64,000 nt of DNA from Escherichia coli (GCF_002854065.1 NZ_CP024147.1); one strand, 5' to 3'; shown: positions 3,046-32,148, counted from the stretch's first letter. The notes: generated by a model from the sequence alone, not told the origin. Numbers and translations: made by a program.

Positions 3046-4314
3046 ATGTATGATTTTGTGATTATTGGCGGCGGCATCATCGGCATGTCGACCGCCATGC
3101 AACTGATTGATGTCTACCCGGACGCCCGCATTGCGTTGCTGGAAAAAGAGTCCGGCCCGGCCTGTCACCAGACGGGCCACAACAGCGGCGTGATCCATGC
3201 CGGGGTTTATTACACGCCCGGCAGTCTGAAGGCGCAGTTTTGCCTGGCGGGAAACCGCGCCACCAAAGCCTTTTGCGATCAAAACGGCATTCGCTACGAC
3301 AACTGCGGCAAGATGCTGGTCGCCACGTCTGAACTCGAAATGGAACGGATGCGCGCCTTATGGGAACGCACGGCGGCGAACGGCATCGAGCGCGAGTGGT
3401 TAAACGCCGATGAACTGCGCGAGCGCGAACCGAATATCACCGGGCTTGGCGGTATTTTTGTGCCGTCCAGCGGCATTGTCAGCTACCGCGAAGTCACGGC
3501 GGCGATGGCAAAAATCTTCCAGGCCAGAGGCGGCGAGATTATCTATAACGCCGAAGTCAGCGCCCTCAGTGAGCATAAAAACGGCGTGGTGATACGTACC
3601 CGTCAGGGCGGTGAATATGAAGCATCGACGCTGATTAGCTGCTCCGGGCTGATGGCTGACCGGCTGGTGAAAATGCTCGGCCTCGAACCGGGCTTTATTA
3701 TCTGCCCGTTCCGTGGCGAGTATTTCCGCCTGGCGCCGGAGCATAACCAGATTGTTAACCATCTGATTTACCCCATTCCCGATCCGGCAATGCCGTTTTT
3801 GGGCGTTCATCTCACCCGCATGATCGACGGTAGCGTCACCGTTGGGCCAAACGCAGTGCTGGCGTTCAAACGCGAAGGCTATCGCAAGCGCGACTTCTCA
3901 TTTAGCGACACGCTGGAGATTTTAGGCTCGTCGGGGATTCGCCGGGTGCTGCAAAACCATCTACGCTCAGGACTGGGCGAGATGAAAAACTCGCTGTGCA
4001 AAAGCGGCTATCTGCGGCTGGTGCAAAAGTATTGTCCCCGGCTTTCGTTAAGCGATCTCCAGCCCTGGCCCGCCGGTGTGCGGGCGCAGGCGGTATCGCC
4101 GGACGGCAAGCTGATTGACGATTTTCTGTTTGTCACCACCCCGCGCACGATCCACACCTGCAATGCGCCCTCCCCGGCAGCGACATCAGCAATTCCTATT
4201 GGTGCGCATATTGTCAGCAAGGTACAAACGCTGTTGGCAAGCCAGAGTAACCCCGGACGCACGCTGCGAGCGGCACGTAGTGTGGATGCCTTACACGCCG
4301 CATTTAATCAATAA
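3046..4314 (+). CDS. lhgO: L-2-hydroxyglutarate oxidase/dehydrogenase (YgaF)
   Basis: Starts MYDFVIIGGGIIGMSTAMQL (FAD-binding GxGxxG); ORF track start at 2980 is an upstream extension overlapping csiD. Confidence 0.93.
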   Translation: MYDFVIIGGGIIGMSTAMQLIDVYPDARIALLEKESGPACHQTGHNSGVIHAGVYYTPGSLKAQFCLAGNRATKAFCDQNGIRYDNCGKMLVATSELEMERMRALWERTAANGIEREWLNADELREREPNITGLGGIFVPSSGIVSYREVTAAMAKIFQARGGEIIYNAEVSALSEHKNGVVIRTRQGGEYEASTLISCSGLMADRLVKMLGLEPGFIICPFRGEYFRLAPEHNQIVNHLIYPIPDPAMPFLGVHLTRMIDGSVTVGPNAVLAFKREGYRKRDFSFSDTLEILGSSGIRRVLQNHLRSGLGEMKNSLCKSGYLRLVQKYCPRLSLSDLQPWPAGVRAQAVSPDGKLIDDFLFVTTPRTIHTCNAPSPAATSAIPIGAHIVSKVQTLLASQSNPGRTLRAARSVDALHAAFNQ

Positions 4315-27830: not shown

Positions 27831-29369
27831 ATGCAACAGCAAAAACCGCTGGAAGGCGCGCAACTGGTCATTATGACGATTGCGCTGTCACTAGCGACAT
27901 TCATGCAGGTGCTGGACTCCACCATTGCTAACGTGGCGATCCCCACTATCGCCGGGAATCTGGGCTCATCGCTCAGCCAGGGAACGTGGGTAATCACTTC
28001 TTTCGGGGTGGCGAATGCCATCTCGATCCCGCTTACCGGCTGGCTGGCAAAGCGCGTCGGGGAAGTGAAACTGTTCCTCTGGTCCACCATCGCCTTTGCT
28101 ATTGCGTCGTGGGCGTGTGGTGTCTCCAGCAGCCTAAATATGCTGATCTTCTTCCGCGTGATTCAGGGGATTGTCGCCGGGCCGTTGATCCCGCTTTCGC
28201 AAAGTCTATTGCTGAATAACTACCCGCCAGCCAAACGCTCAATCGCGCTGGCGTTGTGGTCGATGACGGTGATTGTCGCGCCAATTTGCGGCCCGATCCT
28301 CGGCGGCTATATCAGTGATAATTATCACTGGGGCTGGATATTCTTCATCAACGTGCCGATTGGCGTGGCGGTGGTGTTGATGACATTGCAGACGCTGCGC
28401 GGACGCGAAACCCGCACCGAACGGCGGCGGATTGATGCCGTGGGGCTGGCACTGCTGGTTATTGGTATCGGCAGCCTGCAGATTATGCTCGACCGCGGTA
28501 AAGAGCTGGACTGGTTTTCATCACAGGAAATTATCATCCTTACCGTGGTGGCGGTGGTGGCTATCTGCTTCCTGATTGTCTGGGAGCTGACCGACGATAA
28601 CCCGATAGTCGATCTGTCGTTGTTTAAGTCGCGCAACTTCACCATCGGCTGCTTGTGTATCAGCCTCGCGTATATGCTCTACTTCGGCGCTATTGTTCTG
28701 CTGCCGCAGTTGTTGCAGGAGGTCTACGGTTACACGGCAACGTGGGCAGGTCTGGCCTCTGCGCCGGTAGGGATTATTCCGGTGATCCTGTCGCCGATTA
28801 TCGGCCGCTTCGCGCATAAACTGGATATGCGGCGGCTGGTAACCTTCAGCTTTATTATGTATGCCGTCTGCTTCTACTGGCGTGCCTATACCTTTGAACC
28901 GGGCATGGATTTTGGCGCGTCGGCCTGGCCGCAGTTTATCCAGGGCTTCGCTGTGGCCTGCTTCTTTATGCCGCTGACCACCATTACGCTGTCTGGTTTG
29001 CCACCGGAACGACTGGCGGCGGCATCGAGTCTCTCCAACTTTACGCGTACGCTGGCGGGGTCTATCGGCACGTCGATAACCACAACCATGTGGACCAACC
29101 GCGAGTCGATGCACCATGCGCAGTTAACCGAGTCGGTAAACCCGTTCAACCCGAATGCCCAGGCGATGTACAGTCAACTGGAAGGGCTTGGGATGACGCA
29201 ACAGCAGGCCTCCGGCTGGATTGCCCAGCAGATCACTAACCAGGGGCTGATTATTTCCGCCAATGAGATCTTCTGGATGTCAGCCGGGATATTCCTCGTC
29301 CTGCTGGGGCTGGTGTGGTTTGCTAAACCGCCATTTGGCGCAGGTGGCGGCGGAGGCGGTGCGCACTAA
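27831..29369 (+). CDS. emrB: Multidrug efflux MFS transporter EmrB
   Basis: Sequence MQQQKPLEGAQLVIMTIALSLATFMQV...; the ORF track start at 27822 is an in-frame GTG. Confidence 0.95.
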   Translation: MQQQKPLEGAQLVIMTIALSLATFMQVLDSTIANVAIPTIAGNLGSSLSQGTWVITSFGVANAISIPLTGWLAKRVGEVKLFLWSTIAFAIASWACGVSSSLNMLIFFRVIQGIVAGPLIPLSQSLLLNNYPPAKRSIALALWSMTVIVAPICGPILGGYISDNYHWGWIFFINVPIGVAVVLMTLQTLRGRETRTERRRIDAVGLALLVIGIGSLQIMLDRGKELDWFSSQEIIILTVVAVVAICFLIVWELTDDNPIVDLSLFKSRNFTIGCLCISLAYMLYFGAIVLLPQLLQEVYGYTATWAGLASAPVGIIPVILSPIIGRFAHKLDMRRLVTFSFIMYAVCFYWRAYTFEPGMDFGASAWPQFIQGFAVACFFMPLTTITLSGLPPERLAAASSLSNFTRTLAGSIGTSITTTMWTNRESMHHAQLTESVNPFNPNAQAMYSQLEGLGMTQQQASGWIAQQITNQGLIISANEIFWMSAGIFLVLLGLVWFAKPPFGAGGGGGGAH

Positions 29370-29376
29370 GGTTGTC

Positions 29377-29401
29377 AAAGGGAGCTTCGGCTCCCTTTTT
29401 A
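29377..29401 (+). terminator. Rho-independent terminator after emrB
   Basis: aaagggagc-ttcg-gctccc followed by TTTTT. Confidence 0.8.
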
Positions 29402-29626
29402 TTTGCTCATTGTGCAAACGGTTGTTTTATCCACTCATTCGGTGTATCTTTTCGCCGCCCCAAACTCTTCCATTCACTATTAACCGGTTCTGAGCATTCG
29501 CTCAGGTTGTTAATTCTCTTTTTCCTTCGCCCTCGCTTTCGCGGGTGATACTCACATTTTCCGTTTAACCCCATAACTCGCACCCTCGCGGGCGTACGTT
29601 TATTACACACAAAATAATGGATTATT

Positions 29627-30334
29627 ATGAATACCCAACTTAAATACGGGAGAACCTGGCATTATCCTTTCTCCCCCGGCACCACCAGCGATGACCGCAT
29701 TAACGCCGATTACTGGCAGGATTTACAGGCCATCGCGCAACTGGTGCATACAGAAAAACTCGACGGCGAAAATAACTGCCTTAACCGCTACGGTGTGTTT
29801 GCCCGTTCCCATGCCGCGCCTACGCAGTCGGCATGGACCTATAAAATTCGCCAGCGTTGGCAACTGCTGAAAAACGATCTCGGCGACCTGGAGTTGTTTG
29901 GCGAAAATCTCTACGCCGTTCATTCCATTGAATACCGCGCGCTGGAACAGGACTTTTACCTGTTTGCCGTTCGCTGCCAGGATATGTGGCTGAGCTGGGA
30001 AGAGGTGCAGTTTTACGCCGCCCTGTTTGATTTCCCCTGCGTTCCCGAAATCTCCGGCCCGCAGCCGGGGAATGATGAAAAAAGCTGGCAACGTGATTTT
30101 CTGGCACTGACCAATGCGCGCGGCGCGTTCGATCCCTGGGATACACAAACCGGGCAACCCTGTACTCTGGAAGGCATTGTCAGCCGGAATCGTGATGCGT
30201 TTTCCGTCGCTGACTTTTCGCATAACGTCTTCAAGTATGTGCGCAAAAATCATGTCAAAACCACTGTGCACTGGAAACGACACTGGCAACGGGCGCGGAT
30301 GGCCCATGAGTTCGCTTATGGAGAACAGTCATGA
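29627..30334 (+). CDS. ATP-dependent RNA ligase-like nucleotidyltransferase (Rnl2-type catalytic domain only)
   Basis: 235-aa ORF with covalent nucleotidyltransferase motifs in canonical order and spacing: motif I EKLDGEN, motif [12 protein letters not shown], motif IV LEGIVSR, motif V FKYVRK. Confidence 0.75.
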
Positions 30335-31443
30335 TTTGGCAGCTTACCGACGATAAACGCTGGTCGACACTACGCCAGCGTTTCAGTTGGGTTGAGGAGA
30401 TGCATCACACGCCACAAGACCCGGAGCATCATGGTGAAGGTGACGTCGGCGTGCATACCGAAATGGTGCTTAACGCCCTTGTTACTCAGCCAGAATTCCA
30501 GCAACTCCCCGCTCAACAGCAGGAAGTTTTATGGGCGGCGGCGTTATTACATGATGTTGAAAAGCGCAGCACTACCGTGCAGGAAAACGGACGTATTCAG
30601 TCGCCGGGCCATGCTCGTCGGGGCGAACTGACGGCCCGGCTGATTTTGTGGCGCGATATCCCAACGCCGTTCGTGCTGCGCGAGCAAATCGTTGCGCTGG
30701 TGCGTCTGCATGGGTTACCGCTATGGTTACTGGAACGTCCGGAACCGGAGCGTTTGTTGCTCACGGCTGCAATGCGCATCGACACGCGTCTGCTCACTTT
30801 GCTTGCTCGTGCCGATCTGCTTGGTCGCCAAAGCCCGGATCAGCAATCAATGCTGGAACGCATCGATCTGTTCGAGCTGTTTTGCCAGGAGCAACAGTGT
30901 TGGGGAAAAGTGCGCTCGTTCGTGTCTGATTCCGCACGCTGGCATTACCTGACCCATGAGCAAAGTTCTCCTGATTTTGTTCCCTGGGAGGCTGAACCTT
31001 TTGAGGGCATTTTGCTGTGTGGCTTACCGGGTATGGGCAAAGATCGCTATATCAATGAACAGTGCCAGGGAATGGACGTTATCAGCCTTGATGATATGCG
31101 GCGGCGAATCAATGCCAATCCGGACGACAAAACCGCCACCGGGCGTATTGTGCAACAGGCAAAAGAAGAGGCACGCGTTTTTTTACGCCAGAAAAAGCCG
31201 TTCATCTGGAATGCAACGAACTTTACCCGCCAGCTTCGTAGCCAGCTCATCAGCCTGTTTACGGCTTACGGCGCACGAGTAAAAATAGTTTATCTTGAAG
31301 TGCCATGGGCGCAATGGAAGCAGCAAAATGCCAGACGCGAGTATGCAGTTCCTGAAGCGGTCGTGATGCGGATGGCCTCAAGGCTGGAAGTTCCTCAACC
31401 TGATGAAGCACATAGCGTGGAGTATCGGGTGATTGAAAGGTAA
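30331..31443 (+). CDS. Bifunctional HD-domain phosphoesterase / 5'-OH polynucleotide kinase (HD-Pnk architecture)
   Basis: 370-aa ORF; N-terminal HD metal-ligand pattern ([18 protein letters not shown], further His and Asp); C-terminal P-loop GLPGMGKD followed by [17 protein letters not shown] and [16 protein letters not shown], resembling the T4 Pnk kinase domain; start overlaps upstream stop (ATGA). Confidence 0.75.
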
Positions 31444-31448
31444 AAAAA

Positions 31449-31474
31449 CCGGGCGGTGGTGTCACCTGCCCGGC
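31449..31474. terminator. Bidirectional hairpin terminator between HD-Pnk gene and convergent luxS
   Basis: ccgggc-loop-gcccgg stem flanked by A-run upstream and T-rich run downstream. Confidence 0.6.
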
Positions 31475-31491
31475 TTCTTTTGTTCCACTGA

Positions 31492-32007
31492 CTAAATGTG
31501 CAGTTCCTGCAACTTCTCTTTCGGCAGCGCCAGTTCTTCGTTGCTGTTGATGCGCACGTCACGTTCCAGAATGCTACGCGCAATATCCTGCGCTTCCTGC
31601 AACGAGTGCATCTGGTAAGTGCCACACTGGTAGACGTTCAGTTCCGGGATCTGATTCTGATCCTGCACTTTCAGCACGTCTTCCATTGCCGCTTTCCAGG
31701 CATCAGCAACACGCTGCTCATCTGGCGTACCAATCAGACTCATATAAAAACCGGTGCGGCAGCCCATTGGCGAGATATCGATAATCTCTACACCATTACC
31801 GTTAAGATGGTTACGCATAAAACCAGCAAACAGGTGCTCCAGGGTATGGATCCCTCTTTCTGGCATCACTTCTTTGTTCGGCACGCAGAAGCGCAGATCG
31901 AACACGGTGATTGCGTCGCCATGCGGGGTGTTCATTGTTTTCGCCACCCGAACTGCAGGCGCTTCCATCCGGGTATGATCGACTGTGAAGCTATCTAACA
32001 ACGGCAT
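31492..32007 (-). CDS. luxS: S-ribosylhomocysteine lyase (autoinducer-2 synthase)
   Basis: 171-aa [34 protein letters not shown]... Confidence 0.97.
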
Positions 32008-32075: not shown

Positions 32076-32148
32076 GAAAGACGCGCATTTGTTATCATCA
32101 TCCCTGAATTCAGAGATGAAATTTTGGCCACTCACGAGTGGCCTTTTT
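32076..32148 (+). ncRNA. micA: MicA (SraD) small regulatory RNA
   Basis: Sequence gaaagacgcgcatttgttatcatcatccctgaattcagagatgaaattttggccactcacgagtggccttttt recognised as MicA, including the terminator hairpin and U-tail. Confidence 0.9.

Follow-up and report, generated by a model that had tools for sequence, protein, structure and literature searches.

The segment considered here lies in a 64,000-nucleotide stretch of an Escherichia coli genome (GCF_002854065.1, NZ_CP024147.1; hereafter the window) and occupies positions 29402 to 29626, between the gene emrB and a two-gene cassette for RNA repair. The order of features is emrA, emrB, a hairpin followed by a T-run (H1), the leader that is the subject of this work, a gene of the ATP-dependent RNA ligase family, an HD-Pnk-type end-healing gene, a 3′ terminator hairpin, the convergent gene luxS and the small RNA MicA. 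emrB ends at 29369, the ligase gene starts with the ATG at 29627, and 228 nt of non-coding sequence (29399-29626) separate the H1 hairpin from the ligase gene. The emrB stop codon, the terminator hairpin and the ligase start were rechecked on the sequence, and the coordinates given in the original prediction, which had described a structured leader upstream of an RNA-repair cassette, proved right. The 2.3 kb around the leader are 100% identical to E. coli strain 100416. The leader is a conserved, conventional-looking and previously undescribed 5′ control region of a known gene pair, and a literature search found no paper mentioning it.

The ligase gene (29627-30334, + strand) encodes a protein of 235 aa that matches the Pfam family RNA_ligase (PF09414, E = 3.7e-28) and is named "RNA ligase family protein" in RefSeq. 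The HD-Pnk-type gene (30331-31443, + strand, 370 aa) overlaps the ligase stop codon through the sequence ATGA; its product contains an AAA_33 kinase domain at residues 227-355, where the kinase region matches bacterial Pnkp, and shows weak matches to HD/HDIG and to the HD region of CCA enzymes at the N-terminus. The locus thus has the arrangement that defines the cassette, a ligase-family open reading frame (ORF) overlapping a downstream ORF with an HD phosphoesterase and a P-loop kinase, and the earlier label of an RNA-repair cassette is borne out by these domain matches and by the ATGA overlap. Going by gene architecture, the pair is an end-healing and sealing RNA-repair module, and it is retained in all 80 related genome loci retrieved. 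The PADLOC defence-system libraries gave no match for the ligase or the HD-Pnk protein, and no regulator gene was seen next to the cassette. The arrangement of ligase and HD-Pnk as overlapping ORFs has been described by the Shuman laboratory, with the natural substrate stated to be unknown, and the Runella ligase self-adenylylates, yet sealed no substrate among those tried (PMC6097658). The pair of Runella slithyformis (Munir & Shuman 2017, summarised in PMC6097658) has the same two genes in the same order and overlapping; its cluster contains two extra genes, for Tpt1 and a methyltransferase-HIT protein, whereas the E. coli pair stands alone between emrB and luxS. As summarised there, the Runella work covers the enzymes and not the control region.

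The leader was aligned over 18 distinct sequences, taken from genome loci, a metagenome scan and two contig look-ups. Over its whole length, the E. coli leader is 69-76% identical to those of Klebsiella, Kosakonia and Phytobacter. The part comprising the candidate promoter and the 5′ module (29422-29511) is 76-84% identical between E. coli and the other genera, Superficieibacter aside, while the middle block is 39-41% identical in Kosakonia, UBA3516 and Phytobacter massiliensis, which is about the neutral level, and 57-65% identical in the Salmonella-like and Klebsiella leaders. Identity to E. coli is 61-86% in a further block at about 29577-29594 and 81-95% in the last 21 nt up to the second codon (29611-29631), of which 17 of 21 columns are invariant across the 18 leaders. 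Divergence is greater in Superficieibacter (5′ module 49-55%, start block 86%). Fourfold-degenerate sites of emrB, the ligase gene and the HD-Pnk gene in the same species pairs are 36-58% identical, close to saturation. Judged by this alignment, the comparison demonstrates that the leader is under purifying selection and is co-inherited with both genes behind emrB in several enterobacterial genera. The excess over chance lies in conservation and not in folding energy, and the idea of a functional regulatory leader is upheld by conservation well above the neutral level among cassette-bearing genomes. In searches with nhmmer and a covariance model of the 5′ module, the leader was found only at emrB-linked Enterobacteriaceae loci; remote leader homologues in Serratia, Morganellaceae, Budviciaceae and Bacteroidota were sought in this way and none was found. 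The motif GGTTGT occurs three times at the E. coli locus, at 29371-29376 after the emrB stop codon, at 29420-29425 overlapping the candidate -35 hexamer, and at 29505-29510 after the hairpin H2 described below; for the latter two, the repeated unit is longer, GGTTGTTTTATC / GGTTGTT(T/A)A(T)TC, and recurs in other genera.

In comparison with K-12, the cassette is a 2116-bp segment (29371-31486) that replaces a K-12-type emrB-luxS spacer of 57 bp. Identity with K-12 ends 1 base past the emrB stop codon and resumes at ACTGACTA, which holds the luxS stop codon. The cassette is found in 998 of 5426 complete E. coli genomes (18%), including CFT073, ST131 O25b:H4 and E2348/69, and K-12 and ordinary O157:H7 are without it. 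A leader that is merely neutral junk or the insertion scar of a mobile cassette, as the original prediction had proposed among other options, would fit the presence in only 18% of genomes, and also the 62-68% identity between ligase homologues of Enterobacterales and Bacteroidota, which suggests old horizontal transfer. However, the leader is conserved far beyond the fourfold-site level, the junctions with K-12 show neither target duplication nor terminal repeats, and no integrase or recombinase gene was found at the locus. The leader is single-copy in each E. coli genome, always in front of the ligase gene, and no copies were found on plasmids or phages, by which a repeated or mobile element is ruled out. 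Moreover, the order emrA-emrB-leader-ligase-HD-Pnk recurs in Klebsiella spallanzanii, Kosakonia, three Phytobacter species, two Superficieibacter species, an uncultured enterobacterium and a Salmonella-like contig, and the leader-bearing cassette behind emrA-emrB is known from six genus-level lineages, Escherichia included. One genome, O157:H7 TR01 (NZ_CP033605.1), has emrB and H1 with TTTTTAT, immediately joined to the 3′ half of the hairpin that closes the cassette (GTCACCTGCCCGG...). This remnant of 64 bp (L107 1501-1564; L-numbers are labels of retrieved loci or contigs, with coordinates within each) joins window positions 29370-29402 to 31461-31491 with a junction microhomology of at most 1 nt, and it is the sole such allele among the 5426 complete genomes, the other O157 genomes having the K-12-type spacer. 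As half a hairpin is left in TR01, the allele is a deletion product. An origin as scar or junk is therefore extremely unlikely, and the cassette at emrB-luxS is an old resident being lost rather than a recent insertion. Two further alleles were observed at this locus. In a CFT073 assembly (NZ_CP058222.1, L106 2758-3455), RefSeq calls the ligase gene a frameshifted pseudogene and HD-Pnk is intact, which may reflect cassette decay in some B2 strains or a sequencing error. In the cassette-less E. coli ST2747 (NZ_CP007394.1, L110 958-1407), emrB is annotated as truncated at the C-terminus and the K-12-type spacer is intact.

H1 (29377-29403, + strand; hairpin 29377-29398) has the form AAAGGGAGC-UUCG-GCUCCCUUU followed by a U-run. 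It shares with intrinsic terminators a GC-rich stem of 6-9 bp, a UUCG-type tetraloop and the U-run, is flagged by a terminator scan, and scores +33 with a d'Aubenton-type discriminant, a value typical of a strong terminator. The stem reads GGGAGC/GCUCCC in Escherichia and GGGAUC/GAUCCC elsewhere, and five sequences have changed both sides of this one pair. H1 is missing from the K-12 spacer, where the emrB/luxS bidirectional terminator is a different hairpin at the same position, whereas H1 is kept across genera along with the cassette. The "emrB terminator" of the original prediction is thus a real hairpin, but part of the cassette-type allele. Superficieibacter sp. 1612_C1 has two copies of H1, spaced by about 130 bp, downstream of emrB and upstream of the ligase promoter (L012 3644-3665 and 3776-3797), and a related metagenome contig (L085) has one copy.

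Downstream of H1, a candidate -35 hexamer TTGTTT (29422-29427, + strand) and a candidate -10 hexamer TATCTT (29445-29450, + strand) are each identical in 15 of the 18 leaders; the three Superficieibacter-type leaders have TTGCAA and TATTAT. The spacer between the hexamers is 17 nt in 18/18 leaders with variable sequence, and columns 1-33 of the alignment are gapless. The Superficieibacter version, TTGCAA-17-TATTAT, is called a promoter by the scan at the aligned position, and the H1 T-run abuts the -35 hexamer there, which leaves no room for another promoter. A spacer of constant length and drifting sequence, together with the near-consensus Superficieibacter version, is what a promoter would leave in the alignment, rather than an RNA motif. 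Transcription is predicted, solely from the position of the hexamers, to start on the + strand at G29457, which is 7 nt past the -10 hexamer in the GC-rich invariant block CGCCGCCCC (29453-29461); the Superficieibacter type likewise has a G 7 nt past the hexamer, and in Kosakonia and Phytobacter the G lies a base farther on. Several other elements were read by eye and set aside, with spacing or partner element missing or unconserved: sigma-54 (GG-N10-GC), sigma-E (GGAACTT-N16-TCTGA), sigma-32 (CCCCATNT at 29570) and a LexA box (CTG-N10-CAG in H2).

It is also conceivable that the cassette has no promoter of its own and is transcribed by read-through from emrRAB, the conserved blocks, "hexamers" included, being RNA elements for processing, stability or protein binding. 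The weakness of the E. coli hexamers would agree with such an arrangement, as would the conservation of H1 well beyond the needs of a generic terminator and the co-orientation of the cassette directly behind emrB at all Enterobacteriaceae loci. On the other hand, H1 is a canonical, high-scoring terminator, the constant spacer and the Superficieibacter hexamers carry the promoter signature described above, and the cassettes of other families are unlinked to emrB. Both the dependence on read-through and the role of the blocks as RNA elements are consequently regarded as rather unlikely.

The hairpin H2 (UCUGAGC-AUUC-GCUCAGG, 29489-29506, + strand) corresponds to the first inverted repeat of the original prediction. 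That repeat is real, but the loop had been given as attcg, which double-counts the first g of the 3′ arm; the core CTGAGC/GCTCAG spans 29490-29495/29500-29505, the stem has 7 pairs including a U.G pair, and the true loop is ATTC, 4 nt. The stem has a stability of about -9.5 kcal/mol and is the sole structure common to all folded 5′ modules. It is paired in 18/18 distinct sequences, with both partners changed at three pairs; the covariation is higher than in any shuffle, and controls with shifted partners fall to 22-50% paired. The outer pair is U.G or G.U, which can pair only in the + strand RNA, and the loop is variable in sequence, with 4 nt in Escherichia and 5 nt elsewhere. The alignment thus shows H2 to be maintained by compensatory change as a hairpin of the + strand RNA, and a conserved structure does exist among cassette-bearing genomes. 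In all homologues, C is abundant and G scarce in the predicted transcript (C/G 1.5-2.3, compared with about 1 in the flanking genes), and this conserved ratio and the U.G/G.U pairs of H2 indicate that the + strand is the one transcribed.

The palindromic H2 could instead serve at the DNA level as the operator of a transcription factor that controls the ligase promoter, negatively or positively; an operator had also been suggested at the outset. The stem is almost invariant in 15/18 leaders, and CTG-N10-CAG spacing can be read from the E. coli sequence. A DNA operator is unlikely, however, because the loop length varies and the outer pair works only in + strand RNA: the centre of the palindrome spans 5 nt in all but Escherichia, which has 4 nt, and the outer T/G, which is G/T in one clade, forms no DNA palindrome. 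In addition, S. electus changes both arms in a compensatory manner, H2 lies 35-50 bp downstream of the predicted start, and there is no adjacent regulator gene. Such an operator is considered very unlikely.

H2 is followed by a U-rich tract (UUGUUAAUUCUCUUUUU, 29507-29523, + strand), which is U-rich in every homologue with differing sequence, and a simple scan flags H2 as terminator-like in E. coli and Superficieibacter. About 32 nt upstream of H2 are predicted to be unpaired in every homologue; they include the conserved block CTTCCATTCAC (29467-29477, + strand), which is identical in 15/18 leaders and reads CTTTCCGTTCA in the Superficieibacter type. These features raise the alternative that the 5′ module is a small RNA gene, in which a transcript of about 50-65 nt from the 29422-29450 promoter would end at H2 and the U-tract, the ligase gene would be reached by read-through, and the single-stranded CUUCCAUUCAC would act as a seed on other mRNAs. 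The layout of promoter, unpaired conserved stretch, terminator-like hairpin and U-rich tail accords with this alternative, as does the fall of conservation to about the neutral level right after the U-tract in the three leaders with a 39-41% identical middle block. The tail UUGUUAAUU is interrupted and has no clean U-run, however, and the terminator discriminant is negative, below threshold; the module has never been seen without the ligase gene directly downstream, Rfam gave no small RNA match, and no other ligase promoter is apparent downstream. A small RNA gene, like its proposed seed, is thus a rather improbable reading of the 5′ module.

The remainder of the leader contains several helices of lesser standing. 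The GC-clamped hairpin H3 (UCGCCC...GGGUGA, 29527-29548, + strand) is predicted separately in most of the 18 homologues, with arms that differ (CGCCC/GGGUG, CACCC/GGGUG, GCCC/GGGC and CCCG/CGGG); column counts understate H3 because the alignment register shifts between clades. The second inverted repeat of the original prediction, cgcgggtg (29540-29547) and caccctcgcg (29581-29590), spans 29540-29590 on the + strand and is present, but it is imperfect, with one bulged base, falls under the 6-nt seed of the repeat finder, and lies in the least conserved part of the leader. Its core GGGUG/CACCC is picked by RNAalifold and kept in about 15/18 leaders; it competes with H3 and with the local hairpin H4 (CUCGC-ACCCUC-GCGGG, 29577-29594, + strand, from the predicted fold). 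As a conserved helix this repeat was rejected, as it shows no covariation, lies in a neutral-rate block and is lost in the Salmonella-like leader. RNAalifold also proposes a long-range helix P1, an alternative to H4, between CGCCC at 29456-29460 and GGGCG at 29590-29594 (+ strand), in which pairing is 88% complete. Escherichia sp. MOD1 supplies the one double change, from C to U at 29459 and from G to A at 29591; it is ambiguous because the G to A also improves H4. Searches of the window and a Kosakonia homologue against Rfam at permissive thresholds gave only chance-level matches to the leader, far below gathering scores, and only MicA reaches the threshold in the window. No riboswitch-type multi-helix fold was found, with a fold z-score of -1.86 and only isolated hairpins supported. 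Leader peptides or small ORFs were likewise rejected: the 58-aa (+ strand) and 67-aa (- strand) ORFs and a 13-codon GTG frame suffer non-triplet indels or lost starts, and in the last case a 1-nt indel shifts the E. coli frame in Kosakonia and Phytobacter, and the start is lost in P. massiliensis and Superficieibacter.

The leader ends in a translation-initiation block (AAAAUAAUGGAUUAUUAUGAAU, 29608-29632, + strand) that consists of an A-rich linker, a weak Shine-Dalgarno sequence GGA at 29619-29621 and the ATG at 29627. The original prediction had correctly noted the lack of a strong Shine-Dalgarno sequence, GGA, 5 nt before the ATG, being the sole candidate. The segment TCCATT (29469-29474) is the exact complement of AATGGA, which stands at the ribosome-binding site, and the blocks that hold the two are invariant. 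Accordingly, a translational riboregulator may be envisaged, in which UCCAUU or the 5′ GCCCC hides the weak ribosome-binding site until a signal (a small RNA, a protein, stress on translation or damaged RNA, for instance) uncovers it. G.U pairing preserves the duplex in Superficieibacter, where the segment reads UCCGUU, and the ligase-HD-Pnk leaders of other lineages clearly pair a 5′ segment with the start codon. Against this, the duplex of about -6 kcal/mol is no better than those of shuffled 5′ segments (p = 0.09-0.5) and shows no covariation, AACGGA in Phytobacter massiliensis gives a mismatch, and the UCCAUU/AAUGGA pairing and P1 cross and cannot both form as nested helices. The anti-Shine-Dalgarno pairing was rejected as a candidate on the first two grounds, and a riboregulator of this kind, whichever of these signals is named, is distinctly unlikely.

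The reading preferred here, with a probability of roughly 0.55, is that the leader comprises the ligase-HD-Pnk operon's own weak sigma-70 promoter and a regulatory leader of about 170 nt, as predicted from the conserved features described above. In this mechanism, the strong H1 terminator (29377-29403) would end emrRAB transcription and insulate the cassette, and the weak sigma-70-type promoter (29422-29450), with a GC-rich discriminator, would restart transcription near G29457. The resulting leader of about 170 nt would be pyrimidine-rich (C/G about 2) and mostly unstructured, with H2 and the U-rich tail at about 33-65 nt from the start, followed by the GC-clamped H3 and by H4, and then by the A-rich linker and the weak Shine-Dalgarno sequence. 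Because the promoter and the Shine-Dalgarno sequence are weak and the leader contains H2 and the U-tract, expression would probably be low and probably set after initiation. This could occur because some transcripts end early, at H2 or past it, intrinsically and/or through Rho acting on the C-rich leader, and/or because a factor or small RNA acts on the almost invariant start region. C-rich, unstructured RNA is the kind of substrate that Rho uses. The invariance of the start block and of the H2 stem suggests recognition by a protein or small RNA, and ligase and HD-Pnk would be translationally coupled via the overlapping ATGA.

Several observations weigh against this promoter-and-leader reading. 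The E. coli hexamers TTGTTT-17-TATCTT have 7/12 consensus matches, which is below the scan threshold, and no usable published transcription-start or expression data for the locus were found in the literature search. Taken over its full length, the leader has no significant structure: its minimum free energy is -47.6 kcal/mol compared with -40.2 +/- 4.0 for shuffles (z = -1.86, with 8/200 shuffles folding as well), and the opposite strand gives z = -1.53. The term "structured leader" is thus right in outline and overstated, since the fold is no better than that of shuffles. P1 is broken in the Salmonella-like and Superficieibacter leaders, and Superficieibacter is the one clade in which H2 has undergone compensatory change. 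H2 and its tail score negative with the d'Aubenton-type discriminant in all homologues (-4 to -47), although this discriminant is crude and also scores the cassette's presumed 3′ terminator below zero. No antiterminator alternative to H2 was found in the 5′ module, where nothing is complementary to the H2 5′ arm. Furthermore, the H2 stem sequence is invariant in the 15 leaders beyond base-pairing needs, which could point to sequence-specific recognition instead of termination. The attenuator named in the original prediction agrees with the terminator-like appearance of H2, but is a guess, because the discriminant is sub-threshold and a competing antiterminator pairing is absent; neither the antiterminator nor the leader peptide of an attenuator was found.

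The proposed leader may be compared with known systems. With classical leader attenuators and Rho-dependent leaders it shares a long leader, an early hairpin with U-rich sequence, C-rich RNA and a weak ribosome-binding site. Unlike classical attenuators, the E. coli leader lacks a conserved leader peptide and a terminator/antiterminator alternative, and H2 is below terminator thresholds. The RNA-repair operon rsr-yrlBA-rtcBA of Salmonella contains non-coding Y-like RNAs, and rtcBA is under RtcR/sigma-54 control. The two operons are alike in that an RNA-repair operon is associated with a conserved non-coding RNA sequence; in contrast to rsr-yrlBA-rtcBA, the present locus has no Y RNA or tRNA-like Rfam match, no sigma-54 promoter as read by eye, and no adjacent regulator gene.

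At its 3′ end, the cassette is closed by a terminator hairpin (31449-31473, + strand) that is convergent with luxS and was identified on the sequence with a fold of -17.8 kcal/mol. luxS lies convergently at 31492-32007, and MicA is encoded between luxS and gshA (32076-32147, + strand; Rfam RF00078, 83.9 bits). MicA is an expected neighbour at a distance of 2.4 kb and is unrelated to the leader.

Leaders of the same operon were also observed in other lineages. In Chitinophagia and Sphingobacteriia, TTGAGCCATGTAAT stands about 90 nt upstream of the ligase gene at 12 loci (L032, L047, L049, L052, L055, L059, L068, L069, L073-L075 and L078; about 3895-4009). RNAalifold pairs the 5′ GCCAUGU with the start codon region ACAUGGC in 12/12 of these, with inner hairpins that show compensatory changes, and the three loci scanned with Rfam (L032, L047 and L055) gave no match. 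Cytophagales-type leaders (L036, L041, L045, L051, L061, L064, L039, L044 and L081; about 3790-4003) contain a CCCUU..AGGG hairpin and then AAAUGC-YGUCUUGUAAUACCAUA. In these leaders, a 5′ GUCUUGUAAU is complementary over 11-13 bp to AUUACAAGAC just before the AUG, and AAUACCAU pairs with the downstream AUGGUAUU, for which L039 has the compensatory variant GACACCAU/AUGGUGUU. From the variants AUG-UAA, UUG-UAA and AUG-UGA, a start-stop mini-ORF is conceivable in the Cytophagales type. Several of these loci (L036, L041, L045 and L061; 5950-7140, - strand) have tRNA genes close behind the HD-Pnk gene and in opposite orientation to it. Dysgonomonas and Prevotella (L066 and L071; about 3875-3991) show CAUGUAAUUGUUUA against UAAACAAUUACAUA, and their ligase and HD-Pnk genes are 0.25-0.8 kb apart and do not overlap (L066 4663-4907, L071 4672-5471).

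The leaders of Morganellaceae, from Xenorhabdus (L019-L043) and Providencia (L040, L042, L050, L054, L062 and L067), share AUGUAAUACCAAC. About 100 nt upstream of the ligase ATG they have ATGTAATACCAAC(T/A)CTTGA..TCT(T)TCA and then a hairpin, and a pyrimidine stretch is complementary to the Shine-Dalgarno region (CUCUUU/AAAGAG in Xenorhabdus, UUUCUC/GAGAAA in Providencia). The Xenorhabdus GAACTCTTTCAT resembles RAAMTCTTCCAT of the E. coli group. Among the loci scanned, the leaders of the other lineages were without an Rfam family match. In Serratia sp. H1w (L016 2218-5801), a ligase gene of the rtcB family and prfH (TIGR03073 and TIGR03072, both above cut-off) immediately precede the pair, and together they form a four-gene RNA/ribosome-repair cluster with no long leader; L015, L017, L018 and L020 have the same arrangement by sequence. 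By analogy with the leaders of these lineages, leader-based control is plausible for the ligase-HD-Pnk operon class. A more far-reaching proposal, which seems fairly unlikely, is that the E. coli leader represents, locally, a widespread and so far undescribed mode of gating by leader RNA, at the start codon or by early termination, which may respond to damage or translation stress. If this were true, the E. coli leader would act as a riboregulator that responds to damage, with H2 as its sensor and the start block as its gate.

According to PMC6097658, neither the natural substrate nor the inducing conditions of the ligase-HD-Pnk pair, an RNA-repair module widespread in bacteria, are known. About one fifth of the complete E. 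coli genomes carry the cassette, among them reference strains for extraintestinal and enteropathogenic E. coli. Its evolutionary picture is corrected from a recent insertion to an old cassette that is being lost. The leader offers handles on this operon in the form of a predicted start site, one conserved hairpin and an almost invariant start-codon block, and knowing when the operon is switched on would be the most direct route to what the enzymes repair.

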